Origin: Halomicronema hongdechloris C2206
Lineage (GTDB): Bacteria > Cyanobacteriota > Cyanobacteriia > Phormidesmidales > Phormidesmidaceae
Length of the DNA stretch: 32,000 nucleotides
Reading direction: 5' to 3'
Assembly (NCBI RefSeq): GCF_002075285.3
Contig: NZ_CP021983.2
Span: 3,270,001-3,302,000 of the forward strand
This document shows positions 1 to 16,753 of this stretch, one piece after another; position 1 is the stretch's first letter; every line of letters starts with the position of its first letter. The translations under genes and the position numbers were made by a program. The notes beneath the pieces were generated by a model. It saw only the letters and a list, made by a program, of their open reading frames with translations. It was not told where the DNA came from and made no database searches.

Positions 1-650
1 TTTTTGGAATAAAAAACATCCGTAATACAAAATTGAGGTTTTTGAAATAAGGAGCTTGCGATTTCTAAAGCAGGAAGAAATTTAATTGATTGGAATTGAG
101 AACTAAACTCAGGAAAACTGAGATTACTTTTTACGATTTGTGAAACTACAATACTCGGAATTATTTCAAATAAGCAAGAATCTCGTGGTTGCGCAGTACT
201 ATTGACGGAAAGCTCCCAGTCTTCTGGTGAAAGCTGATGTTCCTGCCATCTAAATGAAGCCTGTTCGATAGCCGCCAATGATGCTGTAATATCTTGCTCG
301 ACTGCTGATTTTTGTCCGCGTTTCTTAGGAAGTGTAAAGGTCTCTCTCACCCAATGCTTAAGCAATCGCTTAACTCGTTCTTCAGGGACATGTTCAAGGC
401 AGAAAAGGAAAGGCTTGTCAGTAGGCAAGCGACCATCGGCACAAACAACTTGAGGGATTGAGGCATTAACTAGAGCTTTGAATTGATATCCTGGCAAGCT
501 GATTGGATGATTGCCTCGCTGTGAGCGATCTCGTGAGTAGTCAACAAGTAAGATCTGCTTGAGGTCAGCAGGAAAAGTCAAACTGTAGTAACTATCACGC
601 AATTGGTTGGGGTTAAGCTGCAAGGCCGCAGCTTTGAGTGAGATTTTCAT
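1..650 (-). CDS. Large hypothetical protein, N-terminal 216 aa only (the gene continues past the window start). Fourth gene of the nuclease/helicase operon and candidate pPIWI-RE-type effector (unverified).
   Basis: Absent from the supplied ORF track because no stop codon lies inside the window. Manual minus-strand translation from the ATG at 650-648 gives an uninterrupted frame down to position 3 (MKISLKAAALQLNPNQLRDSYYSLTFPADLKQILLVDYSRDRSQRGNHPISLPGYQFKALVNASIPQVVCADGRLPTDKPFLFCLEHVPEERVKRLLKHW...). The ATG lies 2 nt after the TGA (655-653) of the upstream helicase gene, on the same strand and in the same AT-rich composition. The product idea rests on operon context only. Confidence 0.55.
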   Translation of the reverse strand, partial: MKISLKAAALQLNPNQLRDSYYSLTFPADLKQILLVDYSRDRSQRGNHPISLPGYQFKALVNASIPQVVCADGRLPTDKPFLFCLEHVPEERVKRLLKHWVRETFTLPKKRGQKSAVEQDITASLAAIEQASFRWQEHQLSPEDWELSVNSTAQPRDSCLFEIIPSIVVSQIVKSNLSFPEFSSQFQSIKFLPALEIASSLFQKPQFCITDVFYSK

Positions 651-652
651 GA

Positions 653-3301
653 TCAGAAACCCTTAACATTGAGAAGTGCTTGAATGCCCTGTGACCAAAG
701 GAATACTGCTTTAGGATCTTTTTGCAATTGTTTTGCTCGGTCAATCGCATCGCCAAGATAAGAAGAATAAGCTGCATCACACAGCCGTACTGTTGCATCA
801 ACCTGCCCTCTCATGATGCGAGGCCATAGTTGCCCAATATCCTCAACCCACCACCGATTTAAGAGAATATTATTCATAAAGCTCTTGGAAGCTTGGGGAA
901 GATAACGTATCTGACGTTTGAAAGCTTGATCAATTAGCCGATCTGCGATTCGTGCATAATATCGGCATTGATCAAGTAGATTAAATCGTTGAGGTGGATC
1001 TTTTTCGGCTAAAAGCTTAGCTCGACGAGCCAAGATGTCAGGTAACCGTTGATCAGTTTCAAAAAGTGAAACCAAAAACAGCTCAATAGAAATTTGTAGG
1101 TCAGTTGGATGAGCGTGTGGTCTAACCAACGAGTAAAGGGCACAAAACGCAGCCTCGCGACTACCGGGCGGAACAATATTAATATCACGACTCACACCCT
1201 GAAAATAAGCAATCAGGACATCAACACCGGGAATAGTGGCAAAGCGCTCAGCGTGACGACGACGAAGACAAGCGGCTCTCTTCCGGGGATCAAAGCTGTC
1301 TAAGTTATCATTATCTCCAACTAGAACTTTACAGCGATCACCCTGTCCCAGAAATTCAAGTGCTTCCCATACGGCCCAGCATTGAGTTTTTGAGTTAGTC
1401 GTCAGAAGTGCCCGCCGTCGGGCTTCAGGATATTGTTGTAAGTCTTGCTCAACGATCGAGGCAGATCCCCCCTCAAAGAGTCGCTTAGTAATTTCAGAGA
1501 TTGCTGCAAGCTTGTCTTCAGTTTCAAGTCCACTCACAAAGATTGGGTTACCGTCAGACTTATAAAACGGATGATAGTGCAGACTAATTTGCCCATGTTG
1601 TCGGTCTTGCCGCTGTAAGAGATAACCATCTGTGCGTAAGTGATAAATCGAGCGGCCATCAGGTAACCATCCCGTTGCTGTTGCGAGGACAAAGTGGCAT
1701 CCCGCGTAGTCGTCAAGTTCATACAGCTTACTCAAGTTAGCGACCAGGTCAGGCCCACTAAACAATAGTGAGAAATACAAGAGGTTAAGATCATCATGAT
1801 TAATGCCACGATCTAAAACCAGTCCGGCAGCTCGCCCTGTGATTAAACGAGGAAAAATATTTTCCAAATATTTTGGGTTACTGCTAAGAGCAGGTTGGGG
1901 AGCATCTCTCTTAATTGAGATTGCCATTTCGCTAGCGGTCAACCCGCGATCAGCATCATGCAGCAAAACTAAGAGCGCATTGACGGCTAAAATAATCAGA
2001 AAGTAATCAACAAAAAGTCTTTGCTCAGCTTCCTCTAAGCTTTGAAATGATTTGTACTGGGATAATGCTTGGGACAGCTTCACTGCAATTATATTATTTG
2101 GGCTTCCATCAAAATCCTCTTCATAGAAAATCTGGCTAGTTGCAATTGAGAAAGGATCATCCGATGTAGACTTAACTCCCTTTTTCAACAGAGGAAATAG
2201 CTGCTCTTTGATTGCCTGATAATCTTCATTACTCCAACCAGATTGAATTTCTTTGATAAATTCGTGAGTCTTCTTAATCCAATTAAGCTGTAAAAAAGTC
2301 GCGTTAAAAAATGACATTTTTTCAAGGCTTGTACAAGCTTCAGGTCGTCGTGACAAATAACCGATCAACCAATCAAAGATAGTGCTCGCTTGATTCAAAT
2401 CGTTATTTAAACCTGCCACTGATAATCGTTTAAGATTTCGCGACCTTTTCCTGCGAATCACGTCTTGATAGCTGCTCACCTCTTCAAGCCACTCCCTCAA
2501 ATCCTTATCAGGAGAAAGTCGGCTCTGGATTCTTTGCTGAGCAGAATCAGCCTCATCAATAAAACAGATATTAAACGTTTTAGTAATATACTCCAACACA
2601 GGCATGGGCTGGTTAGCGAGTTGGATATTAGATAATAAAGCACCCTCTGGAGTTGTGATCAAAACTGAAGATTGCGCCAAGTTTTGTTCCTGACGGTGCC
2701 GTGAGCAATTATCAATAAACGGGCAGTGACAATTAGGTTCTCCTCGTTCTGAACGATACTTGAGATCGAGACATGGCGGATTTTCACGGTCTACATGTTC
2801 ACTGAGCCCAGCCAAAGCACATGAGTAATCTAAGACATCATGTCCAATATGCTCAAGATTAGAAGATTCTGGAGTTTCAAGGAAATCCTTACGATATCGG
2901 TTGCGGTTACTTCGCCCAACAATGACGGCAATATCTTGTTTTCCGTGAGAGAGATAAGGCCACAGCTTTTGTGCTGTGCTTAAAGCTGTGGTGATAGTAG
3001 GAGAAATAATTGCTATTCTGTAAGATGACTTATTAGCGAAGTATAGAGTCACCAGTCGAATCAGAATAGACTTACCTGTACCAGCAGGACCATGTAAAGC
3101 AACTACCTGATTAAAAGTGAGCGTTTCGGTCTCACCCATTTTAGGAAATTGTGAGAGTTTTAGATTATGCAGTTCTTCAAGGTAGTACTTGGGTAGCCTT
3201 TGCTGACTGACCAATTCACCAGTGAAATTTATCAACTGGTCAAACGTCACACTTAGTTCAGGATTTGCACTACGCTGGGGAGGGATTTGAATCAAGTTCA
3301 T
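653..3301 (-). CDS. DinG/XPD-like superfamily-2 helicase/ATPase with a putative 4Fe-4S Cys cluster
   Basis: 882-aa ORF. Walker A GPAGTGKS (aa 71-78, nt 3068-3091). DEAD-type Walker B in CFIDEADS (DEAD is aa 249-252, nt 2546-2557). Cysteines C161, C177 and C191-x-C193-x5-C199 lie between motifs I and II and are followed by SSVLITTPEGALL; this is where DinG/XPD helicases carry their Fe-S domain and the 'A-D-V-V-V-x-N-H' strand. A motif III-like LATATG is present. The start overlaps the upstream stop as ATGA (3298-3301). Confidence 0.8.
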   Translation of the reverse strand: MNLIQIPPQRSANPELSVTFDQLINFTGELVSQQRLPKYYLEELHNLKLSQFPKMGETETLTFNQVVALHGPAGTGKSILIRLVTLYFANKSSYRIAIISPTITTALSTAQKLWPYLSHGKQDIAVIVGRSNRNRYRKDFLETPESSNLEHIGHDVLDYSCALAGLSEHVDRENPPCLDLKYRSERGEPNCHCPFIDNCSRHRQEQNLAQSSVLITTPEGALLSNIQLANQPMPVLEYITKTFNICFIDEADSAQQRIQSRLSPDKDLREWLEEVSSYQDVIRRKRSRNLKRLSVAGLNNDLNQASTIFDWLIGYLSRRPEACTSLEKMSFFNATFLQLNWIKKTHEFIKEIQSGWSNEDYQAIKEQLFPLLKKGVKSTSDDPFSIATSQIFYEEDFDGSPNNIIAVKLSQALSQYKSFQSLEEAEQRLFVDYFLIILAVNALLVLLHDADRGLTASEMAISIKRDAPQPALSSNPKYLENIFPRLITGRAAGLVLDRGINHDDLNLLYFSLLFSGPDLVANLSKLYELDDYAGCHFVLATATGWLPDGRSIYHLRTDGYLLQRQDRQHGQISLHYHPFYKSDGNPIFVSGLETEDKLAAISEITKRLFEGGSASIVEQDLQQYPEARRRALLTTNSKTQCWAVWEALEFLGQGDRCKVLVGDNDNLDSFDPRKRAACLRRRHAERFATIPGVDVLIAYFQGVSRDINIVPPGSREAAFCALYSLVRPHAHPTDLQISIELFLVSLFETDQRLPDILARRAKLLAEKDPPQRFNLLDQCRYYARIADRLIDQAFKRQIRYLPQASKSFMNNILLNRWWVEDIGQLWPRIMRGQVDATVRLCDAAYSSYLGDAIDRAKQLQKDPKAVFLWSQGIQALLNVKGF

Positions 3302-3840
3302 AGCGGAAATCCTTCAATCTCAATACGCTCAAGTTGACCATCATCATGCTTGTAGCTTCTTAGTAGATATATGCCATTTCCTCGACGCTTAACGTGAGTC
3401 TCTTTTAGAGGAATAGGTTTACTCATGCAATCCTTGTAAATATCAAAGCGTCCTGGCAAGATTGCTTGAGAATTTTGCTCAATTTGGCATTCTCCAAGTT
3501 GCAGATGCACAGAGTCATCTTTTATGCTGAAGCCTCGAACTCTTTCAGGTAGCTCAAAGTAAGGGCTTAACACACTACGGCGAGCGTACTCCCAGGTAAG
3601 GAAAGGGCCACCAATGACTTGCAAACTTCGGTGCAGTTGAGTTGGCTTGGTAGCGTCAATTTGATGAACATTCCCAGATACTACAAACCGTAATAAGTCA
3701 ATCGGTTCATTGGGGTAAAGGTGATGAAATGCCCAAAGACAAGCCTCTAGCTTTGCCGTTAATCGAGGTGATTCAATAACCTCTTCATCAGCAAAAACCT
3801 CAATGACTGACTCTAGTTTTGATAAATCACGTCCTGGCAC
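3298..3840 (-). CDS. Hypothetical 180-aa protein, operon-internal, with no recognisable motif
   Basis: GTG start at 3840 preceded by AGGAGG with a 7-nt spacer. It overlaps the upstream nuclease gene by 14 nt and the downstream helicase gene by 4 nt, implying translational coupling. Composition matches its neighbours. Confidence 0.65.
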   Translation of the reverse strand: MPGRDLSKLESVIEVFADEEVIESPRLTAKLEACLWAFHHLYPNEPIDLLRFVVSGNVHQIDATKPTQLHRSLQVIGGPFLTWEYARRSVLSPYFELPERVRGFSIKDDSVHLQLGECQIEQNSQAILPGRFDIYKDCMSKPIPLKETHVKRRGNGIYLLRSYKHDDGQLERIEIEGFPL

Positions 3841-4903
3841 TACGTATCCTCCTAACCTTATCTTTTACACTTGCGATCGCTCGATTAAAAAACAGAAAAT
3901 TGTGATTCGGTAAAGCATCTCTCGCTTGCTGTAGATAAACTTCACCAACCCGGTCAGGGATAACATATATGAAGCGATCGCAATCCCTAGTAAATCGCTC
4001 CTTACTGACTTTGCGAATTAAGGAGCGCGGATAAAGGTAATCCTTGCAATCAAAGATCCAATAATCTCCGTTCGGGAACTTCACAGAAACATCTCCATCA
4101 AGGTCAAGGTTGGGCCACAATTCGCAAGTGGACAATGTTCTCTTAAACTCCTCAAATAAGTTCACATCAATTGCACTACGAAAGTAAAAAGCTGAGGCGA
4201 TACGCCCCCGTAAAACTTTTTCCCCTGATTCATATTTCCTAACCTCGATCGACTGCATTGAAATACAGTCACGGCACTGAGGATGAGGTTTACAATCAAT
4301 CGAAGGCGCTCCACACTGCTTACAGGCAAAATCACTTGGAGCCGTATCGGCTATGTAATATGCTTTATCTATTAATCCCCTCAACTCTTTGGGCTTACCA
4401 CTCAGGAAATCAATCATTTCGTCCTCTGTCTTACTCACGGACGAAACAAGATAACGCCGCAACTCAACATATAACCTCTGTGGATCTTCTTGAGACTGAC
4501 AATAAGACCGCATCTCATTAAAAAATTGATTTTCCTCTATCTCGTCAGGACTGTTGCGTAGAGCTACATAGTCTTCATCGTCTGCAAGTTCGCTAACCCA
4601 AGCGCTCACCTTAATAGTTTGATCCGGTATCTTGCCAAACTGTATTAGCCGATCAGTAGGTTCTAATAAATCACCTTGTAAGTAACTGGGCCACTCACAG
4701 TAAGGCTCATTAATGACTTCCCGAACAAGCTCAGACCAATTGCCAGGTGGATGAACACCTTGTTTGAAAGCGGCAACGGCAAAATGATCTAAAGCATGTT
4801 CAGTCTCCCTTAATGGCAATCCCGAAGATGCTCGACCGTCAGGAGATAGCGCTATTGCCTTCAGTAAATAAGCAAAACCGATCTCAGCATGTTCCACAGC
4901 CAC
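3827..4903 (-). CDS. Restriction-endonuclease-fold (PD-(D/E)xK) nuclease with an N-terminal helical region and a central CxxC...CxxC Zn-ribbon
   Basis: 358-aa ORF. GTG start at 4903 with GAGGA 7 nt upstream. Zn-ribbon C194-x2-C197 ... C210-x2-C213 (nt 4265-4324). Nuclease core LDLDGDVSVKFPNGDYWIFDCKDY, with D268/D271 and D285-x-K287 (nt 4043-4108), followed by IYVIPD. First gene of the operon. Confidence 0.7.
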   Translation of the reverse strand: MAVEHAEIGFAYLLKAIALSPDGRASSGLPLRETEHALDHFAVAAFKQGVHPPGNWSELVREVINEPYCEWPSYLQGDLLEPTDRLIQFGKIPDQTIKVSAWVSELADDEDYVALRNSPDEIEENQFFNEMRSYCQSQEDPQRLYVELRRYLVSSVSKTEDEMIDFLSGKPKELRGLIDKAYYIADTAPSDFACKQCGAPSIDCKPHPQCRDCISMQSIEVRKYESGEKVLRGRIASAFYFRSAIDVNLFEEFKRTLSTCELWPNLDLDGDVSVKFPNGDYWIFDCKDYLYPRSLIRKVSKERFTRDCDRFIYVIPDRVGEVYLQQARDALPNHNFLFFNRAIASVKDKVRRIRSART

Positions 4904-5309
4904 GAATAGATCCTCGTCTTATGTTTTTGTCTTGTGTTCCTACTTCTCTAACCTTCAAGGCATCTTTGACGATTTGTGTCAGGCAAATAGCCTAAATTTT
5001 CCTAGTAAGTAGTTGTGGGGCTCACTAGAACTTGTGTTTCCATTGCCTTCAAGTAGTATAAGCGTTCTGTCGGCAAAATGACAACCAAAGCTCTATGGGT
5101 AGTGTCAAAGGTCTATACAGTTTGCATATTTGCCTGCATGTAGGGTTCTGATGAAATCGATAAAACTACCTTTTCACTTGCATAGCCTACTTTGCTACGT
5201 GGCCGCTTTGATTTTTGCAGCAGCATAACGGCAAAACGCAGCGGCGGCAAGCAACCTAAAACTCAGCACTAGCGGATTTCGTCCGTCCGCTGCCGTGACG
5301 TGTTAGGCG

Positions 5310-6074
5310 TTAAGGCAAGCTTCGAATACAATCACCAATGATTTTATTCATAGGACTTGCTTTCGAGAAATAAGTTAAAGTATGGTTCCTACTAATTGCA
5401 GTTGCTCCACGTGTACCTACTGCGGCTGACCACGCAAGCCAATCTGATTTACCAGTGCGAAGATGTTCTTCCCTCAATTCAATCATGCCAAATCTTTGTT
5501 CTGGAATCTCTAAAATCTTGGCCCGAGATATTAGAGTTGCATTTGGATGTTCGTAAAGCTCAAGCAAAATGCTTGAATATTCAGAAGTGTCAGCTAGATA
5601 ATCTTCCGAGAGTTTGCCCATCCAAAACAACTGATCTTCAGTGATGTTCTCGCCTGCCCTAATAAAATTTAATATCAAGCTAGCAAGAGATTCTCTATCG
5701 TCTACATACTTTGAGAAATGGTAGATACTCTTACTCAAACTCGGGAATCGTTCCAGAAAAACATTCATTCGCGACAAAACATCAGTTCCATGATCTCGCA
5801 GTAATGCTAAAACCAATTCTGCATCCGATTCATCAATGTCTGCCTCCTTTAAAAGATTTAGTAAGTATTCAACTTGTTCAGATGTTAATTTCTCATAATA
5901 TTCTTCCTCTTCAAAAGTAACTCCTCCAGAAGTTTCGAAAATTGTTCGTCTAATTTTCAGTAAATCAGCTTTTAATTCATCAACTTTCTTAGCAACATCT
6001 AGCTCGCTGACTTGACCTAATATGGTTTTTGCAGAATTTAGCGAGAGCCCCTTGTCTTGCCCGAATCGACGGAG
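5310..6074 (-). pseudogene. 5'-truncated ORF. Possible C-terminal remnant of a reverse-transcriptase-family (Abi/DRT-like) protein with a long alpha-helical tail.
   Basis: The 281-aa track ORF (5310..6155) has no ATG/GTG start between the CRISPR repeat and aa ~140. Its first ~27 codons are simply the translated CRISPR spacer and repeat (FQSLRRVFVDWN, which recurs in ORF 9012..9230). Immediately after the repeat it reads RFGQDKGLSLNSAKTIL, resembling the RT domain-7 motif (G-L-x-L-N-x-x-K-T-x-I). An acidic/helical region follows. No maturase X-domain motif is seen. Confidence 0.35.
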
Positions 6075-6111
6075 GTTCCAATCAACAAAAACCCTTCTTA
6101 GGGATTGAAAC
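6075..6111 (+). repeat. CRISPR repeat 1 (canonical, 37 nt)
   Basis: Exact GTTCCAATCAACAAAAACCCTTCTTAGGGATTGAAAC. It abuts the truncated RT-like ORF. Confidence 0.9.
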
Positions 6112-6148
6112 CTGAATGATTCCGCCCCTGTATCCGTACTCATAGGGT

Positions 6149-6171
6149 GTTCCAATCAACAAAAATCCTTC
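6149..6171 (+). repeat. CRISPR repeat 2, 5' part (23 nt), cut by the ISL3 insertion
   Basis: GTTCCAATCAACAAAAATCCTTC (one C>T change), followed directly by the IS end GGCTCTATTGG at 6172. Confidence 0.85.
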
Positions 6172-6449
6172 GGCTCTATTGGCTAAGCTATGCCAAGTTC
6201 ATATCAATATTCCAACAAATTAGACATCTGAGTTCAAAATTATCAAAGTTACTGAACCCAAATCCAAGTCGCTTAATGAGCTTTAATCGATTATTGATAC
6301 CTTCCACAATGCCGTTTGTTGTACCATTTTCGAAATAGTTTAGGACCTCGCCAAACCATCGACAAAGGGTACCTACACTACCATTGAAGTATGTTTCAGC
6401 ATCGACCATCCAGTCAAGCAATTCAAACAGAGCCTCCGACCATTTACTC

Positions 6450-7967
6450 GCAGGGCAATCGCACTTATTTTGTATCAATCGTACTTGACAGAATAGTTTG
6501 TCAACCCAGGTGTCTAGGGCTAGACAGGTCACCTGGTATCCGCGAGACTGCAAGCCTCTCTACTGTTCTACTCTCGACCCCGGCCTTCTCATGTCCAAAG
6601 GATTTGCTCCCTCAGTGGCTTCTGCCCCATCAGCGACCGCCCAAAAGCTGCGACAGAGCTTTATTGAGCGGTTTGAGGCTCTCGAAGATCCTCGGGTGAA
6701 ACGGCAGCCCGAGCACTTGCTCGTCGATATTGTGGCCATCGCGATTCTGGCGGTGCTCTCAGGAGCCAATGACATGGTGGCCGTTGCAACCTATGGCAAA
6801 GCCAAGCAATCGTGGCTGGAGACGTTTTTGGCGTTGCCGAATGGCATTCCCTCGCATGATACCTTCTCCAGGGTCTTAGCCCTAGTAGACCCCCAGCAGT
6901 TGCAGGAGAGCTTCTTGAGTTGGGTGCAGCAGCTCACGGAGCAGTTGGAGATTAACCTGATTCATCTCGACGGGAAAACGGCGCGGGGGTCCTATGACCG
7001 AGAGAGGTCGTTGAGAGCCTTGCAGACCGTCAGTGCCTGGGCCTCAGAGCATCATCTGGTGCTGGCGCAACACCGCGTCGAAAGCACCTCGAATGAGATT
7101 ACCGCTATTCCCGAATTGCTCAACCTGCTGGATCTCGACGGTGCGATTATCACCCTGGATGCCATGGGCACGCAACGGGAGAGTGCTGCCCAGATCCGGG
7201 AGCAAGGAGGGGACTACATCCTGGCACTGAAAGGCAATCAAGGGACCCTCCACCACGCGGTGAAGACCTTCTTTCAGGAGGCGGAGCGCACTCAGTGGGC
7301 AACCCTGGATTATAGCTACAGTAGCACCACAGAAGCCGGTCATCATCGCATTGAACATCGTCAGGTCTGGGCGGTGCCGCTGAGTCAAGTGCCCGAGTTG
7401 CCCACTCACCAGACCTGGAGCGGCCTGGCTACCGTTGTGATGGTCAGCGCGACCGCCAATTGTGGAACAAGACGACCCATGAGGTGTGCCTCTACATCAG
7501 CAGTTTGCCAGCTGAGGCCAGTGTGTTGGCCCAAGCGATCCGCTCCCATTGGGGCATCGAAAATAGCTTGCACTGGGTGTTGGATGTCACCTTTCGGGAA
7601 GACTCGAGTCGGATTCGCAGCGGTCATGGTCCTGAAAACATGGGCCTCTTACGGCGTTTGGCCCTGAATTTACTCAACCGGGCTCCCTCTAAGCAGAGTC
7701 TCAAACAGAAACGCTATCGCGCTGCCATGGACAATGACTTTGTCATCGAGGTGTTGCTTGCTCATGACGTTGGCTAAGGCCAGCGAAACGGCCCTGATAA
7801 GGGGACACAAACGATTGGAGGACACGACAATCCAGCTCATGCAGCTCTTCAGACTATTCCAACGGGGTTGGAATCACGTTTTCAGCATCTAAAACTGGCA
7901 TGACTCATAAAATCCTGATCTGGATTCTGAGCATTATGTCAAGCTGATTTACATGCGATTGCCCTGC
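6450..7967 (+). mobile_element. ISAs1-family (H-repeat-type) insertion sequence nested inside the ISL3 transposase gene
   Basis: 14-bp terminal inverted repeats GCAGGGCAATCGCA (6450-6463) and TGCGATTGCCCTGC (7954-7967). 8-bp direct duplication ATTTACTC at 6442-6449 and 7968-7975. The GC-rich interior contrasts with the AT-rich ISL3 host element. Confidence 0.8.
6591..7777 (+). pseudogene. ISAs1-family transposase with a frameshift near 7445-7460
   Basis: From the ATG at 6591: MSKGFAPS...FEALEDPRVKRQPEHLLVDIVAIAILAVLSGANDMVAVATYGKAKQSWL...NGIPSHDTFSRV, typical of ISAs1/H-repeat transposases. The conserved C-terminus (LWNKTTHEVCLYISSL...IRSHWGIENSLHWVLDVTFREDSSRIR) lies in a different frame (ORF 7460..7777). 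Confidence 0.8.
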
Positions 7968-8981
7968 ATTTACTCGCCGTTTCAAAGATAGTTCTAAACT
8001 GTTCTTTCAGACCATGCATTTCCGCTAATTTAGGAGAGGCATCTCTAATTTCATTAAGCTTATTTTGCTGCACTTCTGTCAAATTATCTTCCGGTTTAAG
8101 TAACGCATATTTACTCTGCTTAAGTGCCTGTCTTACAACCTTGTTCTCAGGGGTATCAGGAGCCGCATTCGCTTCTCTCTTGAGCTGATTCCGAGTCCGA
8201 TTTAACTCATCGTTAACTAGCTTCATAATATGGAATCGGTCCGCTACAATATCAGCATTCGGAAGATACTTATTCACAAAACTTCGGTAGTTTCCGGACA
8301 AATCAATACTGACTTCAAGAATGTGCTCTAACACCTATTGGCCCCAGCCTTCCAGCACTCTCAGCATGTCAACCTGCTTGCGAGAAGGAGCTAAACCAAT
8401 CAGATTATGTGTGTCTAAATCTACAAATACGACAATATAATCTTCATGCCCCTTACGCAACGCAATCTCATCAATTCCGAGGCGGCGCAGCCCATGAGGA
8501 TTGACCTTTAGGTCTTTTTTGCAATGTACTTGACAATCGAGGCCACCTCCTCATCTGTCAATCCATTATTCATCGCGACGTTATGGGCATCGCTATGAAT
8601 CAATTGCTGCACCATGGCTTTGCAAAATCGATCGGTATGTTTCCGCCGTTTCCCGACAAAGTTTAATGGTTCACTAAAGGGTTTACCGAAGGTCAGACAC
8701 TTGAACTGCCGTCGATTAACTCTGAGTAACACCGTCCGGTCACTGATGCTTAGATCCCGCACAAGATAGGGATGATTCTGATGAACATGATGACTGTCTT
8801 GGTGACAGCGAGGACAGGTTGCTCGGTCAGTCTGAGCTTCAACATCTAGAATCAGCTGGTCACCGAGGTCGTAGTAATCTTCAACTTCAACCCCAGGCAA
8901 ATTCAGAAGCTTGGTTAGAAGGGGTTGCATTGTCTTTTCCTGTATAGCTCGCTACATTAGCATAATAAACCCAATAGAACC

Positions 8982-9003
8982 AACCCTTCTTAGGGATTGA
9001 AAC
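8982..9003 (+). repeat. CRISPR repeat 2, 3' part, including the 8-bp target-site duplication
   Basis: AACCCTTC (duplicate of 6164-6171 AATCCTTC) followed by TTAGGGATTGAAAC. Joining 6149-6171 to 8990-9003 restores a 37-nt repeat. Confidence 0.85.
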
Positions 9004-9038
9004 CAACTGGATCAGCATCTGGCAAAACGCCCCGGCGT

Positions 9039-9075
9039 GTTCCAATCAACAAAAACCCTTCTTAGGGATTGAAAC
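9039..9075 (+). repeat. CRISPR repeat 3 (canonical, 37 nt)
   Basis: Exact match to the consensus. Confidence 0.9.
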
Positions 9076-9363
9076 TTGACATATTGACTAACCCTAAGAA
9101 CCCAAAATAAAAGACAAAACTTTAATGCGGGGCGGTTAAAACCGCTGCTATACAATCGAAGTCGGCCTGTGCCGACTATCTTACTGAGAGGTCCAGGCCT
9201 AGGAGCGGCGTGGTATCTTCTCGTCGACACGGTCGCGGGGTTAACCGCTACATGCCCGGTTGCTGCAATTCCTGTCTAGCGAGGTTGATGCACAGTTCCC
9301 GGTAGCCAGTTTGAGGGTCGATTTCTTGCCTGAAGCTGTAGCCAGGCAAAGCTGCGATCGCAG

Positions 9364-9400
9364 GTTCCAACCAACAAAAACCCTCTACAGGTCTAAATGA
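9364..9400 (+). repeat. Degenerate terminal CRISPR repeat
   Basis: GTTCCAACCAACAAAAACCCT matches the consensus with one mismatch. The 3' half (CTACAGGTCTAAATGA) has diverged. Confidence 0.6.
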
Positions 9401-9666
9401 GACTCATTTGGCATCAATCGAGGATGTTTAGGATCAGTCCCCCCGTCTAGCGCCAGCCCAGAAGGTTTTACTGATCTCGCCGCCCCTGAAATCTGCCACG
9501 ATGCTCCGCCGGTCTAAGGGGCCAAAGTGAAGAGGCGTCTTACTGGACGTTGTGATACGCTCTGTGGGTAGGGAAGGCATGATGCAAAAGGCTCAAATCA
9601 AGGGCAGGCCAATGATAGTATGACCAGCTTGCTGCTAATAGATACGCAATTTGTGGACCCGGTTGC

Positions 9667-10242
9667 TTACTGGTGTTCTAACAGAGTAGAGAGTATCTGC
9701 TTGCCGCAACAGGCGATACCTGAGCAATGCTGCAACATAGCAATGACTACAGTTCCTTCCATGATAATCATCACCTGTCGGGTTATTCCTTCTGGATCGG
9801 ATAAATTAGCCGCCTGGACTAATCCCAGGATGTAGTCAAAGGTGAGCTGTTGATGCTGCATGGAAACTTGATAGCCAGGATGGTTGGGGTCCACCAGCTC
9901 GACGGTGGAATTGAGAAAGGCACAGCCGCGAAAGTCGGGCTGATTAAACCATTCTTCCAGCACATCGAACATGGCCAATAGGCGATCGAGGGGCTCTGTG
10001 GCCGATTGCTCCACCCGAGTCTGAAACCAACTGCGCCAGGCTTCGTCCTGCTGCAGCAGCCAAGCGGCAATTAAGGCATCCTTTGACTTGAAGTGGTTAT
10101 AGAGGGACATCTTGGCAACCCCCGATTCGGCAATGATGCGATCGATGCCGACGTTCTGCACCCCTTCTCGATAAAAAAGATCAGCGGCGGTTGCCAAGAT
10201 GCGATCGCGTGCAGAGGACCGGGACGATTGCGTACGAGCCAT
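9667..10242 (-). CDS. TetR/AcrR-family transcriptional regulator
   Basis: HTH signature RDRILATAADLFYREGVQNVGIDRIIAESGVAKMSLYNHFKSKDALI. The likely start is the internal ATG at 10242 (MARTQSS...) rather than the track start at 10350. Confidence 0.85.
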   Translation of the reverse strand: MARTQSSRSSARDRILATAADLFYREGVQNVGIDRIIAESGVAKMSLYNHFKSKDALIAAWLLQQDEAWRSWFQTRVEQSATEPLDRLLAMFDVLEEWFNQPDFRGCAFLNSTVELVDPNHPGYQVSMQHQQLTFDYILGLVQAANLSDPEGITRQVMIIMEGTVVIAMLQHCSGIACCGKQILSTLLEHQ

Positions 10243-10522
10243 GAAGCTTTGTATAGACAGGTCTGTATAACTACAGTATATCAAGGCACGTTGAGATAAG
10301 CTTGTCTCATTGGAGAGCGTTTTATGGCTGAGTGAGAAGATCTGGGTCATTGTGAGACTGACCCAGAATCATGATCAAGCGGCTCTAGCTGGCTGCCAAT
10401 CCTGTGATGGGTTGGCTGCAACCTTTAATGGCAGCTGGATTCTTTAATGTGCCGGTTGGATCTTGCTTTGCTAGAGATGCGATCGCCTGCAAGCATGCCG
10501 GCAAGATGACCTAACCTCCCAT

Positions 10523-10993
10523 CTACTCAGCCAGCTTAAATTCTTGCAGGGCCGGCAGAAAGTTGCGATTTTCGTGGCCGGGGCGACTCAGTTTGTAGAG
10601 GGCAAACCGTTGCAAGGGGGTAAGGTTGGCCCATTTGTCTACCGGAATCGTGATGCCCAGGGCCTGAGCCTGTTCCTGGGTCTGGACCGGCACTGCCCCC
10701 GGCTGATGCCAAGGCGGCTCTGGATCGACTGCTAGATCTTTGGCCGGCGTCTGGGTGTGTTGCAGCACCAGCTGCTGCAGGTAGGTGCGATAGGTTTGGA
10801 TCTCAGCCTCAGTGCTACAAGGCCACTGGGCTAAGCTGTACCGCTCCTGGGCATCGAAGCGATGCCATTGATCGAGCTTGAGCTTGATGCCGCAGGTATC
10901 GAGCTTGAACCGCACCTGCATGGGAATGCAGCGCAGCGACTCGACGAAGTCGGCCTCAAAGGCAAAAAAAACGGGTTTCTCAGACATCACCAT
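10523..10993 (-). CDS. Nitrate reductase-associated protein (NarM-like), about 156 aa
   Basis: A small conserved-looking ORF immediately downstream of narB on the same strand. Its size and position match the cyanobacterial 'nitrate reductase associated protein' family. The assignment is by context and recollection, not by a diagnostic motif. Confidence 0.55.
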   Translation of the reverse strand: MVMSEKPVFFAFEADFVESLRCIPMQVRFKLDTCGIKLKLDQWHRFDAQERYSLAQWPCSTEAEIQTYRTYLQQLVLQHTQTPAKDLAVDPEPPWHQPGAVPVQTQEQAQALGITIPVDKWANLTPLQRFALYKLSRPGHENRNFLPALQEFKLAE

Positions 10994-11093
10994 AGATCTT
11001 GAATCAGACTTCCCCAGTGTTGATACTGCTGGCGAAAAACTTTCCTACGAGTGGGTAGCCAGTGATGACTGTCGCCAGTGGCATCATCATCGC

Positions 11094-13298
11094 CTACAGT
11101 GGTGAAGCCCCCACTGGCATGGCTTCCGGATGCGCCTGCTGCATCGGGGCCGTCACCGTATCCGAGACTGGTGTGATATGCACGGCACAGGCTTTCAGTT
11201 CCGGTTCCAGGGAGACGGGGCAGACTTCTGGGTGAGTCAGGGCGTTACACTCAGCTGCTGTGGCCCAGAGGACGCCCCAATGCATGGGCAAGAAGACGGT
11301 GCCGCGGCGAATGGTCTGGGTGACTCGCAGTTTTACCCGCACCTGGCCACGACGCGATCGCACCTCTACCCACTGGCCCGACTGCAGGCGCAGTTCCTGG
11401 GCATCGCGGGGATTCATCTCCAGCAGTGGTTCAGCATACATGGTGCGGGTCTTCTCGATGCGGCCGGTGCGAGTTTGGGTGTGCCAGTGGCCATAGAGGC
11501 GCCCAGTGGTGAGCACAAAAGGAAATTCTGGGCTGGGCGGTTCTGCTAAGCCGCGGCTGTGGAAGGACGCGAAGCGGGCTCGGCCATCTGGGGTGGGAAA
11601 TCGCAAGTCTGTGTATAGCCGCTTGTCCATGGCCTGGCTGGGGTCGTCTGCGGGATAGGGCCATTGCTTGGGGCCTGGAGCCAGACACTCGTGGCTGAGG
11701 CCGGTCATGTCACAGACCCGCCCCCGGGTCAGCTGCACGAACTCGGTAAACACCTCGGCCGCAGACTGAAAGGCAAACTGTTCGGTAAAGCCGAGGCGGC
11801 GCCCTACTTCGGCGAAGATCTCCCAATCGGGGCGGGCCTCCGCTGCCGGCGGACAGAAAGCCGGACACAAGGTCACCACCCGCTCGGAGTTAGTCATGAC
11901 GCCGGTCTTCTCGCCCCACTGAGCCGCGGGTAGTAACAGATGGGCATAGGCGGCTGTCTCCGTGGGGTAGTAGGCATCCTGATACACCGTGAAGGGAGAG
12001 CGCCGTAACGCCGCCTGGGCCCGCTCTAGATCCGGTAAACTCACCGCCGGGTTGGTGGCCGCTACCCACAACAGTCCCACCTGATTTCGCTCTAGGGCCC
12101 GCACCATTTCCCAGGTATCTAAGCCTGGTGCCGCCGCAATGCTGCCTGCTGGCAACTGCCATGCCTGTTCTAACACCTGACGATGCTCAGGATTCGCCAC
12201 CGAGCGATAGCCCGGCAGCAGATGGGCTAGGCCGCCGGCTTCTCGTCCTCCCATGGCATTGGGCTGGCCGGTTAAGGAGAATGGCCCTGCTCCCGGTTTC
12301 CCCACTTGGCCGGTCATTAAGTGTAGGTTGATCAGCGTCCGCACCTTGGCCGTGCCCTCGGCCGATTGGTTTAAACCCATGGACCACAGGGATAGCACTC
12401 GCTCAGCCTCGGCCCAGTAGCGGGTGGCCGTCTCTAGCTCTGGCACCGTGATGCCACACGCCTGGGCCACCTTCTCGGGCGGATACTGCTCAACCACGGC
12501 GGCGTAGTCGGTAAAGCCATGGGTGCATTCCTCGATGAAGAGGGCATCCAGCTTACACCAGCGCAGCAACAAATGGGCCATGCCGTTGAGCAGGGTGATG
12601 TCGCTGCCCGGCTTAATGGCTAAATGCAGATCGGCATCCTTGGCGGTCTCGGTGCGACGGGGATCGACCACCACTAATTTCACCTGGCGATTCTTCTTGT
12701 GGTGCTTGCGCAGGCGATTGAAGACGATGGGATGGCATTCCGCCGTATTGGAGCCGATGATGAAGGCACAGTCTGTCAGTTCTAGGTCGGCATAGCAACA
12801 GGGAGGGCCATCGGAGCCAAAGCTCTGCAGGTAGCCGGCCACCGCCGAGGCCATGCAGAGACGAGAATTGGCATCGAAGTTATTGCTGCCCAGGCAGCCC
12901 TTCATCAGCTTTTGGGCAATGTAGTAATCCTCGGTCTGAAACTGACCGGACCCATACATGCATAGCGCCTCGGGGCCCAACTGCTGCCGCACCGTCTGGA
13001 TCTTGTCGGTTAGCACCGTCAGGGCCTCGTCCCAACTCACCTGCTGAAAGGGCTGCTCCAGGGAGGAGCGCAGCATCGGGTGTTTCAGCCGATCTTTATT
13101 GAGGGCCTCGCCCACCGTGGCCCCCTTGACACAGACCTGCCCTTTGCTGGAGGGATGGTTGCGATCGCCCCGGGTCTGCCAGAGGGGAAACCCCTGACTA
13201 TCGCGTTGCACCGGTCGACCACGGCGGGCTGGGGGCAATACCTCTAAGCCGCAGCCAACACCGCAGTAAGGGCAGAGGGTCTTGGTGGCGTCAGTCAT
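11094..13298 (-). CDS. narB: Assimilatory ferredoxin-nitrate reductase (molybdopterin oxidoreductase)
   Basis: N-terminal 4Fe-4S motif [10 protein letters not shown]...C...KG. Bis-MGD oxidoreductase length (~735 aa). Sits in an operon with nirA and nrtP. The start is either 13298 ([13 protein letters not shown]) or 13322. Confidence 0.9.
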
Positions 13299-13402
13299 AA
13301 GCAAGCTGGAGTGACAGAACATCAGCCAGCCCGAAACAGTAGGGCTGTGTCGGGCTGGACAATGGATAGAAAAATGGCTGAGTTATGGCAATTGCTTACC
13401 GG

Positions 13403-13422
13403 TTGATTAACCGGTTAATCAA
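13403..13422. repeat. Perfect 20-bp palindrome in the nrtP-narB intercistronic spacer
   Basis: TTGATTAACCGGTTAATCAA equals its own reverse complement. It is flanked by two further inverted repeats (13326-13334/13350-13358 and 13428-13434/13464-13470, the latter enclosing a HIP1 site). Confidence 0.9.
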
Positions 13423-13482
13423 AGGCAGGGTAGCCCGGGGTTGAGATTTGCGATCGCAAGGGAGCTACCCCACCCCATAGAC

Positions 13483-15018
13483 CTATTCCTTCACCGGTAG
13501 GGGAGCCGGCGTAGACGGCGTCACATAGGCTTCTTCCCCTTCATGGAATTCAGCGAAGGAGCCCCGGGGTTCCTTCATGAAGAAGAAGCAGAGCATGGCC
13601 ACAACCACGCCAGCCACACCTAGCACCTGGAAAAAGATGCGATCGCCGATGACGCCTTCCGGCAACAGACTATAGATGGTGAGATAGGCCACCGCGCCCA
13701 CATTGCCGTAAGCCCCGACATTTCCGGCCACCTGACCAGTAATGCGGCGCTTCACCAGCGGCACCATGGCAAAAGTGGAGCCCTCAGCTGCCTGCACAAA
13801 GAAGGAGCAGACCATGGTCAAGGCAATGGCCAAGGGCAAGAGCCAGGCATTGGTGACAGTGCTCATCATCAGGTAGCCAATGCCCATACAGAGCAACAAT
13901 ACGGACATGGTCATCTTGCGGCTGCCCATGCGGTCAGAAATCAGACCGCCCCCCGGGCGAGACATCAGGTTCATGAAGGCATAGGTGGCCGCAATCATGC
14001 CAGCGGCCTGTTTGCTGAGGCCGAAGGTGAGCTCGAAGAAGGCCGGCAACATGGAGACCACGGCCAACTCGGAGCCAAAGTTAACGATGTAGGTTAGCTC
14101 TAACAAGGCTACCTGGGAGAAGGGATAGCGATCTTCGGGGGCATAGCGCTTGCGGCCGGTGAGTAGCTCCTGGTTGACGTGCCAGCAGTTGTAGGCCTGA
14201 TATAGATAGAGACCCGCCAAGACGATCAGAGTAATAGCAAAGGTGCCATCATTGAGGAAACCAATGCCCTTGAGGCGCCAAGCTAGCACCGCCAGAATAC
14301 CGACTAGGGGCAAGTTCATGGCCATCAAGAACCAGAAATCCCGCTGACTGGTCACTTCAACACCACGGGTACTGTGGGGCCGCTGATAGGGCTTACCCGG
14401 CGGGGTATCTTCCACGCTGAAGTAATAGAGAATGCCATAGAGGGCGGCAATGATGCCGGTGGCGGCGATGGCCATGCGCCAGTTTAGTAGGGGACCATCG
14501 GCCACTTGAAAGGCTCCGGGAAAGAAGCTGAGAAAAGTGGCTAAGCCCACCATAGTAAAGGCAGAGGCAGCAGAGCCGAAGTTGCCCCAGCCACCGTAGA
14601 TGCCCTCGGCCAGGCCGATTTCCCTAGGTGGAAACCATTCCGCCACCATGCGGATGCCGATGACGAAGCCAGCGCCCACAATACTCAGAGCCAGGCGCGC
14701 TGCCACCAGTTGGCTGAAGTTTTGGGCAGCGGCAAAAGCAATACAGGGAATAGCGGCATAGATCAGCAGCAGGGAGTAGGTTAGGCGGGGGCCATACTTA
14801 TCCAGCAACATGCCGATGATGATCCGGGCAGGGACGGTCAGGGCTACGTTACAGATGGCAATGGTGCGAATCTGCCCGGCATCGAGACCAAACTCTTCCT
14901 GAATCGCCGTAGCTAAGGGAGCCAAGTTAAACCAGACGACGAAGGATAGGAAGAAGGCAAACCACGTCATGTGGAGGATTTTATAGCGGCCTCGTAAGGA
15001 CCACATCTCAGCAAGCAT
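13483..15018 (-). CDS. nrtP: MFS nitrate/nitrite permease (NNP family, NrtP/NapA type)
   Basis: 511-aa, 12-TM-type hydrophobic protein located between nirA and narB. The N-terminus (WFAFFLSFVVWFNLAPLATAIQEEFGL) and the G-rich NNP signatures (GGWGNFG, AGNVGAYGNVGA) are typical of this family. Confidence 0.85.
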   Translation of the reverse strand: MLAEMWSLRGRYKILHMTWFAFFLSFVVWFNLAPLATAIQEEFGLDAGQIRTIAICNVALTVPARIIIGMLLDKYGPRLTYSLLLIYAAIPCIAFAAAQNFSQLVAARLALSIVGAGFVIGIRMVAEWFPPREIGLAEGIYGGWGNFGSAASAFTMVGLATFLSFFPGAFQVADGPLLNWRMAIAATGIIAALYGILYYFSVEDTPPGKPYQRPHSTRGVEVTSQRDFWFLMAMNLPLVGILAVLAWRLKGIGFLNDGTFAITLIVLAGLYLYQAYNCWHVNQELLTGRKRYAPEDRYPFSQVALLELTYIVNFGSELAVVSMLPAFFELTFGLSKQAAGMIAATYAFMNLMSRPGGGLISDRMGSRKMTMSVLLLCMGIGYLMMSTVTNAWLLPLAIALTMVCSFFVQAAEGSTFAMVPLVKRRITGQVAGNVGAYGNVGAVAYLTIYSLLPEGVIGDRIFFQVLGVAGVVVAMLCFFFMKEPRGSFAEFHEGEEAYVTPSTPAPLPVKE

Positions 15019-15166
15019 GGGTATTGTCTCCTTAGTAGATGGAAGTTGCGTGGGTAATCCCAGGGTGAGTCATGGCTCACGGTCAGGAATTCGCTCAGCC
15101 GCCGCTGAGCCAGGCGATCCCCTCGATGGATTGGGAATGACCTGAAAGAGGCGTGGGGATCGAAAC

Positions 15167-16753
15167 TTAGAGGGCCGTCACCGTATGGCCATTGTGCTGA
15201 CTCTGGTTGTCAGCCTCTCGAGGTTGGGCCTGAAAGTGATCGATCAACAGCTGTTGCATCACCTGGGGCAAGTCTTCGCAGGCCACCCCTTTCTGCACGC
15301 ACTGGCCCAGTTGGGCATCTTTGCCGACTTTCCCGCCCATATAGATGTCGACTCCCTCGACGGCTTGGCCATCCTTACGGACTTTGGTGCCCATGAGGCC
15401 AATATCAGCCACCTGGGGTTGCCCACAGGAGTTAGGACAGCCAGTCCAGTGGATACGCACGGGTTGGGGCACAGCCAGGGCCTGATCCAGGGACTGGGCC
15501 AGAGCCAGGGCTCGCTGTTTGGTTTCGATCAGGGCAAAGTTGCAGAAGCGAGAGCCAGTGCAGGATACCAGGGAACGCACTAGGGGAGTCGGTTCCAGGG
15601 AGAATTTCTGCAGCACTGGCTCCTGCAGAAACACCGGCAGGCGAGAATCTGGGATGTTGGGCAAAATCAAGTTTTGCTCCACGGTGAGCCGAATCTCGCC
15701 ATTGCCATAGACTTCAGCTAATCGGGCAATCTCGACCATGTCGTCTGCTTGCAGACGCCCCACTGGCACATGTAAGCCCACATAGTTAAGACCAGGCTGT
15801 TTCTGGGGATGGACACCGATATGATCTCGCTTATCCCAGTCGATCTCATCGGTGGCAGCTGCCCTGGCCAAGGGACGACCCATGGCGGCTTCGACGGTGC
15901 TGCGGAACCTGTCCAAGCCCCAATCATCGATCAGCCACATCAAGCGAGACTTCTGCCGATTCGCTCGCGGGCCATGATCCCGATACACTTCTAGGATGGC
16001 GCGGCACACATCCACCACCGTGTCGTCAGGGGGAACCCAGGCATCCAGGGGAATGGCGGCGGCACAGCGACGGGCGGAGAAAAAGCCTCCCACTAGGACG
16101 TTGAAGCCCAGTTGCTCCTCCCGATAAGCAGGAACGAAGGCGATGTCATTAATTTCGGCGTGGACTGAGTTATCCCGCCCGCCCTCAATGGCAATGTTGA
16201 ATTTACGGGGCAGATTGGTGAAGGCATAATTCCCGTCGCCATTGCCGGTAATCATGTCCTGGACTTTGCGAATTAGCCCCTGGGTGTCAATCAATTCATT
16301 GGCGTCTAGACCAGCCACCGGTGAGCCAGTGATGTTGCGGACATTGTCCATGCCAGACTGCACTGAGGTCATGCCGGCATGCTTGAGGCGCTGAAAAATG
16401 TCAGGGATATCTTCTAGACGAACGCCCCGGAGCTGCAGGTTTTGTCGAGTGGTAATATCGGCACTACCGTCATCGCCATAGCGTTGCACAATAGTGGCCA
16501 ACACCCGCAGTCTATGGCTATTCAAAACGCCGTTGGGCATGCGTAACCGTAACATGAATTTCCCAGGGGTAACCGGACGAAAGAAGATGCCCAGCCACTT
16601 CAGCCGTTGGGTTAAATCGGTTTCATCTACCGCTTCCCAACCCATTTGGGCCATTTCCTCAAGCTCGTCTTTAACCGCTAGGCCATCCTTTTCGGCCTTA
16701 TAGCGCTCAAACTTATTGAGTTTAGTGCCAGTCTTTTTTGAGGCTGAAACCAC
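15167..16753 (-). CDS. nirA: Ferredoxin-nitrite reductase
   Basis: 528 aa. Sirohaem/4Fe-4S cysteine motifs SCTGSRFCNFA and TGCPNSCGQ. N-terminus NKFERYKAEKDGLAV...RLKWLGIFFR. GTG start with AGGAAA upstream. First gene of nirA-nrtP-narB. Confidence 0.9.
   Translation of the reverse strand: MVSASKKTGTKLNKFERYKAEKDGLAVKDELEEMAQMGWEAVDETDLTQRLKWLGIFFRPVTPGKFMLRLRMPNGVLNSHRLRVLATIVQRYGDDGSADITTRQNLQLRGVRLEDIPDIFQRLKHAGMTSVQSGMDNVRNITGSPVAGLDANELIDTQGLIRKVQDMITGNGDGNYAFTNLPRKFNIAIEGGRDNSVHAEINDIAFVPAYREEQLGFNVLVGGFFSARRCAAAIPLDAWVPPDDTVVDVCRAILEVYRDHGPRANRQKSRLMWLIDDWGLDRFRSTVEAAMGRPLARAAATDEIDWDKRDHIGVHPQKQPGLNYVGLHVPVGRLQADDMVEIARLAEVYGNGEIRLTVEQNLILPNIPDSRLPVFLQEPVLQKFSLEPTPLVRSLVSCTGSRFCNFALIETKQRALALAQSLDQALAVPQPVRIHWTGCPNSCGQPQVADIGLMGTKVRKDGQAVEGVDIYMGGKVGKDAQLGQCVQKGVACEDLPQVMQQLLIDHFQAQPREADNQSQHNGHTVTAL

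Follow-up and report, generated by a model that had tools for sequence, protein, structure and literature searches.

A probable four-gene variant of the pPIWI-RE system, with domain Z encoded apart from the helicase, in Halomicronema hongdechloris

What kind of system is encoded by the four tightly packed genes at the left edge of a 32,000-nucleotide stretch of the Halomicronema hongdechloris C2206 chromosome (contig NZ_CP021983.2, positions 3,270,001 to 3,302,000; the whole stretch is hereafter called the window)? An initial annotation of the sequence described an operon that either resembles the pPIWI-RE systems or represents something new. The pPIWI-RE systems are operons of a restriction endonuclease (REase), a DinG-type helicase, and a PIWI-RE protein, which were defined computationally and predicted to be RNA-guided restriction systems by Burroughs et al. 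in 2013 (PMC3702460). The letters RE stand for an Arg and a Glu residue that are absolutely conserved in the PIWI domain (PMC3702460). As described below, the locus is very likely a pPIWI-RE system in a four-gene variant, where domain Z is a separate gene translationally coupled to the helicase gene. The genes are called g1 to g4 in the order of transcription, and the features of the locus are as follows.

3827..4903, minus strand: g1, 358 residues, a pPIWI-RE-associated REase-fold protein with a helical domain Y, a CxxC...CxxC zinc ribbon, and a PD-(D/E)xK domain
3298..3840, minus strand: g2, 180 residues, a free-standing pPIWI_RE_Z domain
653..3301, minus strand: g3, 882 residues, a DinG-type superfamily 2 (SF2) helicase core with a four-Cys insertion of the iron–sulfur (Fe-S) type, lacking domain Z
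1..650, minus strand: g4, open without a stop codon for its first 216 codons up to the window edge, encoding domain X of the pPIWI-RE protein
4904..5229, minus strand: non-coding operon leader upstream of g1, containing a candidate sigma-70-like promoter

The coordinates and the junctions are exactly as initially annotated: g1 and g2 overlap by 14 nucleotides, g2 and g3 overlap by 4 nucleotides (ATGA), and g3 and g4 are separated by 2 nucleotides. The g4 frame runs out of the window after 216 codons, also as described. The order of the genes is REase, Z, helicase, and PIWI, and their ends overlap or are closely spaced, as a pPIWI-RE operon demands. Three of the proteins have GenBank entries of identical sequence, namely ASC72147.1 (XM38_031010) for g1, ASC72146.1 (XM38_031000) for g2, and ASC72145.1 for g3. 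The GenBank product name of g3 is 'Reverse gyrase', and those of g1 and g2 are 'hypothetical protein', while UniProt already gives Pfam-based names to two of the operon proteins.

The four proteins were compared with the pPIWI-RE models of Pfam (PF18156/PF18154, PF18155, and PF13111/PF18157/PF13032) and PADLOC (PprRE/PprDinG/PprPIWI). All four exceed the curated Pfam cut-offs, with expect values (E) of 6e-15 to 7.7e-8, and g3 matches PprDinG of PADLOC with an E of 6e-62. In g1, pPIWI_RE_REase (4.6e-13, residues 246–336) and pPIWI_RE_Y (2.3e-8, residues 33–156) are each found over their cut-offs, along with PprRE (1.9e-13). The g2 protein is matched by pPIWI_RE_Z in both Pfam (7.7e-8, 32.9 bits against a cut-off of 25) and PADLOC (3.2e-8). 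The general DEAD family of Pfam (1.8e-6) and, weakly, the CasDinG model (typeIV_DinG, 5.3e-6, residues 64–300) also match g3. The visible part of g4 gives pPIWI_RE_X (6e-15) and PprPIWI (1.2e-10). These family matches are far beyond chance, and they bear out the pPIWI-RE-like reading for every one of the four genes. NCBIfam holds no model for any of the four operon proteins.

The active site of the REase is well preserved. The zinc ribbon of g1 is formed by C194-x2-C197 and C210-x2-C213, both of which are read in the window sequence. We aligned g1 with its homologues, including members of canonical three-gene systems that were fetched by tblastn from plasmids of Calothrix PCC 7716 (p3 and p2), Nostoc TCL26-01, Nostoc edaphicum, and Bradyrhizobium elkanii. 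In the resulting alignment of eight sequences, with identities of 21–97% (21–24% for the canonical plasmid members), the residues C194, C197, C213, D267, D271, D285, K287, and E302 are invariant. The PD-(D/E)xK triad, D271 plus D285-C-K287, is thus present and invariant across the eight sequences. The Zn-ribbon and the D..D...D-C-K core that had been noticed from the letters of the window are therefore both found, and the nuclease catalytic residues are conserved in the homologues.

In g3, Walker A (GPAGTGKS) is located at residues 71–78 and the DEAD box at residues 249–252, and four Cys residues (C161, C177, C193, and C199) lie between them, in agreement with the initial description of a DEAD-type SF2 ATPase with a Cys cluster. 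The four Cys residues are invariant across nine homologues. So are G71, G76-K77-S78, D249-E250-x-D252, and Q255, and the later SF2 motifs are invariant too, T543, S590-G591, N636-S637, and R705..N708 among them. In sequence searches of the PDB, neither g3 alone nor the nine-sequence profile matched any solved DinG, XPD, or CasDinG chain. The grounds for the designation 'DinG-type' are therefore the Cys cluster, the weak match to the CasDinG model, and the 2013 analysis (PMC3702460). The top, non-significant PDB matches of the g3 profile are reverse gyrase helicase domains (E 0.008), and the NCBIfam reverse gyrase model scores 11.9 bits against a cut-off of 471.7. The 'Reverse gyrase' label of ASC72145.1 is almost certainly a mis-annotation, probably caused by a weak match at motif I.

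The small gene g2 should be noted, since a gene for domain Z distinguishes this locus from the known three-gene architecture, where Z is the N-terminus of the helicase. The g3 protein covers only positions 177–898 of the 930 positions of the PprDinG profile, leaving the N-terminal part unmatched. The canonical plasmid systems all have three genes, and their helicases are 1062–1167 residues long. In the three of these helicases that were scanned with Pfam, domain Z forms the N-terminus at about residues 2–183 (E 2.6e-5 to 1.4e-36). When the Z and DinG proteins of the window are concatenated, they are colinear with the fused helicases, and the gene junction maps to a linker. Moreover, hhalign places residues 29–175 of the Z alignment of the cyanobacterial clade onto residues 21–163 of the fused Z-DinG proteins (probability 83.5%, E 8e-6). 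The partial PprDinG coverage, the fused canonical helicases, the colinearity, and the hhalign result all point to the 180-residue protein being the N-terminal domain of the helicase encoded apart. By sequence comparison, g2 is not an extra component, contrary to the initial annotation, where it was regarded as an additional gene. An AlphaFold2 model of Z from a six-sequence alignment was unusable (predicted local distance difference test score, pLDDT, 38.8).

The same four-gene order is kept in six relatives that differ in sequence (73–94% nucleotide identity), and the four genes occur together in different genomic contexts. The nucleotide identity to the window is 93.6% for two JGI metagenome loci (L013/L014), 93.5% for a Logan assembly (L009), 79% for Lyngbya sp. 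CCY1209 (L001), 76% for two further Logan assemblies (L002/L003), and 73% for another (L005). The 14-nucleotide overlap and the 4-nucleotide ATGA overlap are identical in L001, L002, L005, L009, and L013, and a Z gene of 180–182 codons occurs in every relative found, though Z of the Lyngbya relative (13.4 bits) is under the Pfam cut-off. The ratios of nonsynonymous to synonymous substitution rates (dN/dS) were calculated by the Nei–Gojobori method between the window and four relatives. The values are 0.10–0.15 for g1, 0.12–0.22 for g2, 0.04–0.12 for g3, and 0.09–0.15 for the visible codons of g4. Across the operon, dN/dS is thus 0.04–0.22, and purifying selection acts on each of the four genes. 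The four-gene order, the overlaps, and the low dN/dS in the relatives show that the split of Z is old and kept by selection in a small cyanobacterial clade, and that it does not stem from a frameshift error in sequencing.

Two further loci carry broken modules. One, in a metagenomic relative (L004, 76% nucleotide identity), retains the REase gene, the Z gene, and a truncated DinG gene. In this locus, a transposase of the IS630 family (DDE_3, 4937–5884) occupies the position of the PIWI gene, and only 842 residues of the helicase remain; the module has been inactivated by the insertion sequence (IS). The other locus (L012, 6804–13981 of ENA ERZ25039468 contig_4773) is a pPIWI-RE system with 65% guanine-plus-cytosine (GC) content, in which the REase, Z-DinG, and DinG genes are each in pieces. 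Its protein P0010 was considered as a second standalone Z and rejected, since the accompanying REase and DinG genes are broken as well. The downstream reading frames remain open far ahead of their called starts, and conserved helicase motifs are found in these stretches, where the motifs of the broken genes continue in other frames. We therefore take L012 for a fused system with frameshifts or sequence errors, either pseudogenized or assembled with indel errors. Genetic code 4 was tried for this contig with a negative result (65% GC, TAA stops).

The synonymous divergence (dS) between the window and L009 climbs along the operon, from 0.08 in the REase gene through 0.14 in the Z gene and 0.25 in the DinG gene to 0.49 in the PIWI N-terminus. 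The PIWI N-terminus of the window is nearer to L013 (98% amino acid identity) than to L009 (87%). The gradient and the closeness to L013 suggest recombination between alleles of the module.

The initial annotation left the decisive fourth protein cut by the window edge. The relatives with 93–94% nucleotide identity encode an X-(MID)-RNaseH_pPIWI_RE protein, in support of the PIWI-like character suspected for the fourth protein, and the full-length PIWI proteins of the clade are 796–803 residues long. The visible part of g4 is identical at 211 of 216 residues (98%) to the N-terminus of P0015, an intact 803-residue protein with domains X and RNaseH_pPIWI_RE found on JGI and Logan contigs. It is 71% identical to the Lyngbya protein and has neither a stop codon nor a frameshift. 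The Lyngbya PIWI protein, when scanned, gave pPIWI_RE_X (6e-33), RNaseH_pPIWI_RE (8e-10), and MID at 18.3 bits against a cut-off of 26.6. Precomputed Pfam matches list X and RNaseH_pPIWI_RE in the remaining PIWI members of the clade. A global hhalign comparison of the clade PIWI proteins with the canonical members and PsPIWI-RE of Pseudomonas stutzeri gave a probability of 99.9% and an E of 3e-34 over 685 columns.

The catalytic residues expected of an active PIWI protein, with a DEDX-type RNase H site, were examined by mapping the experimentally tested residues of PsPIWI-RE, whose sequence was translated from the supplement of PMC10991935. In MAFFT and hhalign alignments with six full-length members of the clade, the column of D525 is occupied by His and that of D610 by Ser or Ala with an adjacent Tyr or His. 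The column of R639 is Arg in all six members. The first catalytic Asp is also missing in the PIWI proteins of the cyanobacterial plasmid systems, which agrees with the statement that only a subset of the PIWI-RE family retains the catalytic residues (PMC3702460). The absence of both Asp residues suggests that the PIWI protein of this clade is probably non-catalytic and serves as a sensor rather than a nuclease.

Where the operon is located is also informative. The GC content is 40–46% across positions 1–6000 and 52–62% past 10 kb, so the AT-rich island initially described is real. The flanks of the operon differ in every locus: XisH/XisI lie downstream in L001 and a ParE toxin–antitoxin pair in L009, and the canonical plasmid homologues adjoin restriction-modification systems. 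The module is mobile. It is not a housekeeping locus conserved by vertical descent, the case that the initial annotation had named as a possible refutation. The leader is approximately 93% identical to that of L009 in one continuous match from the operon to position 5229, where the similarity ends; in L001, L002, and L005, the similarity to the window stops within approximately 25 nucleotides of the g1 start. The candidate promoter, TTGTCA-18 nucleotides-TATACT at 5084..5055 on the minus strand, is proposed by consensus match alone (10 of 12 positions). No RNA family was matched in an Rfam scan of the window.

The neighborhood beyond the leader contains the remnants listed in the initial annotation, here identified as a truncated reverse transcriptase gene, a degenerate array of clustered regularly interspaced short palindromic repeats (CRISPR), and two nested IS elements. 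The open reading frame (ORF) at 5310–6155 on the minus strand is a truncated Drt5 antiviral reverse transcriptase, of which only the C-terminal half remains (PADLOC Drt5 6e-86, profile positions 245–492 of 493; NCBIfam NF041750, 279 bits against a cut-off of 550). The Drt5 homology starts at approximately 6056, abutting a CRISPR repeat at 6075–6111, and approximately the first 33 codons of the ORF read through the repeat. The CRISPR array spans 6075–9404 with a 37-nucleotide repeat, GTTCCAATCAACAAAAACCCTTCTTAGGGATTGAAAC, of which good copies are located at 6075 and 9039 and partial copies at 6149, 8967, and 9364. The array is interrupted by the inserted IS elements, and the window carries no cas genes. 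Within 6188–8930, a transposase of the ISL3 family is found in three minus-strand pieces (8508–8930, 7939–8334, and 6188–6553). The ISL3 element is split by an IS4/IS5-like element (DDE_Tnp_1) at 6498–7777 on the plus strand, the transposase of which is itself apparently frameshifted (ORFs 6498–7667 and 7460–7777). The low-GC island ends on its right side where the core genome returns (9667–16753); encoded there are a TetR regulator and, on the minus strand, a gene cluster for nitrate assimilation. The cluster comprises a nitrate-reductase-associated protein, a molybdopterin nitrate reductase (11094–13322), a major facilitator superfamily transporter (13483–15018), and a ferredoxin–nitrite reductase (15167–16753). 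The differing flanks, the low GC content, the defense remnants, and the plasmid homologues beside restriction-modification systems fit a defense island.

How would such a system work? The 2013 proposal gives each protein a part: the PIWI-RE protein as the sensor of RNA–DNA hybrids or guide–target duplexes on foreign DNA, DinG as the unwinding or translocating enzyme, and the REase as the cutter (PMC3702460). PsPIWI-RE uses RNA guides against DNA targets and DNA guides against RNA targets, and its cleavage activity has been shown (PMC10991935). In the best-supported model for the present locus, which draws on both sources, the PIWI-RE protein may load a short guide and recognize the nucleic acid of an invader, or RNA–DNA hybrids on transcribed foreign DNA. 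Lacking both catalytic Asp residues of PsPIWI-RE, it would act as a sensor only. The Fe-S helicase, paired with the free Z subunit, would then unwind the target or translocate on it, and the zinc-ribbon PD-(D/E)xK protein would cut the DNA. Z would most likely be an adaptor that keeps the helicase in the complex, one that can be supplied apart from the helicase. We infer every step of this mechanism, and the roles of the REase as the effector, PIWI as the sensor, and Z as the adaptor are our own additions. The specific combination, in which Z is a free fourth subunit and PIWI a catalytically dead sensor within a four-component guide-directed complex (PIWI for recognition, the DinG core as the motor, Z as the adaptor, and the REase as the cutter), is offered as a tentative model that has a serious possibility of being right.

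Several observations weigh against these interpretations. The MID domain falls under the Pfam cut-off in the clade. The column of E718 of PsPIWI-RE is located in an alignment gap, and the Glu of ..TLVEANP.. is one register off when the sequences are aligned without gaps. The call of an inactive PIWI comes from an alignment at approximately 17% identity, and the AlphaFold2 model of P0015 (six sequences) has a pLDDT of 34.0. The window carries 216 codons of the PIWI gene, whose intactness there is judged from relatives. The H. hongdechloris PIWI protein is absent from the protein matches, where a search with the PIWI alignment gave five members of the clade. Finally, the searched literature shows no experimental function for a complete pPIWI-RE system, and the sole in vivo phenotype of a PIWI-RE protein, ciprofloxacin sensitivity with filamentation, is not one of defense (PMC10991935).

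The last point leads to the main rival, that the operon serves chromosome maintenance and not immunity, with a guide-directed PIWI, the helicase, and the nuclease helping to resolve or terminate replication in cells with impaired topoisomerases, a role that has been proposed for PsPIWI-RE and some prokaryotic Argonautes (pAgos). Deletion of piwi-re in P. stutzeri lowers survival in ciprofloxacin approximately 15-fold and causes filamentation, and the authors speculate that a complex of PIWI-RE, DinG, and nuclease participates in replication termination (PMC10991935). However, the distribution is mobile and island-bound, which agrees poorly with a role in replication or decatenation: it is patchy with other flanking genes in each locus, an IS destroys the module in L004, the operon has a low GC content and lies beside Drt5, CRISPR, and IS remnants, and the canonical homologues on plasmids adjoin restriction-modification systems. 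We thus consider a maintenance function in place of defense unlikely, and the two roles are not mutually exclusive. The same surroundings, rich in degraded defense genes and IS elements, raise the question of whether the copy in the window is itself an inactive remnant that decays like the neighboring Drt5 gene, CRISPR array, and nested IS elements. That the PIWI gene exits the window at 216 codons, that the PIWI protein of the source genome is missing from the protein database matches where its REase, Z, and DinG are present, and that IS630 took the place of PIWI in L004 are compatible with decay. However, g1, g2, and g3 are of full length with all catalytic motifs, their differences from the relatives are mainly synonymous, and the 216 codons of g4 are free of stops and frameshifts and 98% identical to an intact homologue. 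The database miss carries little weight, since known homologues with 71% identity went unfound too: a word-index protein search with the 216-residue fragment returned nothing, though homologues with 71–98% identity exist. A contig scan for the operon found the Lyngbya relative only. A remnant is accordingly quite unlikely.

The other branch of the initial annotation, an undescribed four-gene defense module that merely resembles pPIWI-RE, may draw on the presence of four genes instead of the three described, on the sub-threshold Z of Lyngbya, and on a helicase that has no significant sequence match to solved DinG or XPD structures. On the other hand, each gene is over the threshold for the corresponding pPIWI-RE model and the gene order is canonical. 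The fourth gene is explained by the split of the helicase, and the PIWI proteins align to the canonical members with an hhalign probability of 99.9%. With the Pfam and PADLOC matches, the fused-Z helicases, the colinearity, and the PIWI alignment, the suggestion of something new is refuted, and we regard this explanation as highly improbable. The interpretation of the locus as a pPIWI-RE system with a split Z is thus retained.

The locus does not represent a new kind of system; it is a minor architectural variant, with a split Z, of a known but under-studied one. In the searched literature, only one PIWI-RE protein has been studied biochemically, and no work on the whole system or on how it operates was found. 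No solved structure in the PDB was related by sequence to the operon proteins, and the search with PIWI gave nothing informative. The fact that this cyanobacterial clade keeps the active site of the REase without the catalytic Asp residues of PIWI points to the REase as the effector. Since Z can be separately expressed and manipulated, the natural split is handy for studying this domain, and the four-subunit version is a practical start for reconstituting the pPIWI-RE complex. If Z indeed works as a free subunit, the clade would be a convenient entry to the role of domain Z and the assembly of the complex. The GenBank labels 'Reverse gyrase' and 'hypothetical protein' for g1 to g3 merit correction.

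Compared with the three-gene pPIWI-RE system, the locus has the same families in the strict REase–helicase–PIWI order with abutting or overlapping ends: a Y–zinc ribbon–REase protein as gene 1, a Cys-rich DinG-type helicase, and, to judge from the relatives, probably an X-(MID)-PIWI protein. We saw no methylase linked to the operon within the window, and the distribution is patchy and island- or plasmid-like, as in that system. The differences are the helicase core of 878–882 residues versus 1062–1167 residues in the fused form, the PIWI protein of 796–803 residues versus 908–1000 residues in the cyanobacterial plasmid systems, and a MID under the Pfam threshold with the family Glu lacking an unambiguous position. 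The canonical systems vary as well. In the three-gene system on plasmid pUSDA31-1 of Bradyrhizobium elkanii (L008, 8886–12942; record 255288–264590), the gene at the PIWI position is 9.3 kb long and encodes approximately 3100 residues, three times the usual size, under the annotation 'RNaseH domain-containing protein'. Its length implies that large extra domains are fused to the PIWI-RE protein.

PsPIWI-RE (PMC10991935) is homologous to the PIWI protein of this clade over nearly its full length and is of similar size (783 residues), its gene adjoins a DinG helicase gene, and the Arg at R639 is shared. In contrast, PsPIWI-RE is an active nuclease that needs D525 and D610, where the clade has His and Ser/Ala and is predicted to be non-catalytic. 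Short or inactive pAgo systems employ partner effectors such as pAgo-associated nuclease, SIR2, and TIR proteins. The present operon appears similar to them in its logic, namely a PIWI fold without catalytic residues and a separate effector enzyme in one operon within defense islands. The two differ in that the protein here belongs to the RE clade with domain X, versus APAZ or PAZ in pAgos, and has a helicase and a PD-(D/E)xK nuclease as partners. The likeness would be an analogy of working and not family membership, and neither abortive infection nor target degradation is experimentally evidenced for pPIWI-RE. As for the helicase, g3 has no significant similarity to the solved chains of DinG, XPD, or CasDinG of type IV-A CRISPR-Cas, and its C-terminal half is family-specific. 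It nevertheless shares with these proteins the SF2 motifs and the four-Cys cluster between Walker A and Walker B and, in the proposed model, would resemble CasDinG in being recruited by a guide-bearing partner.

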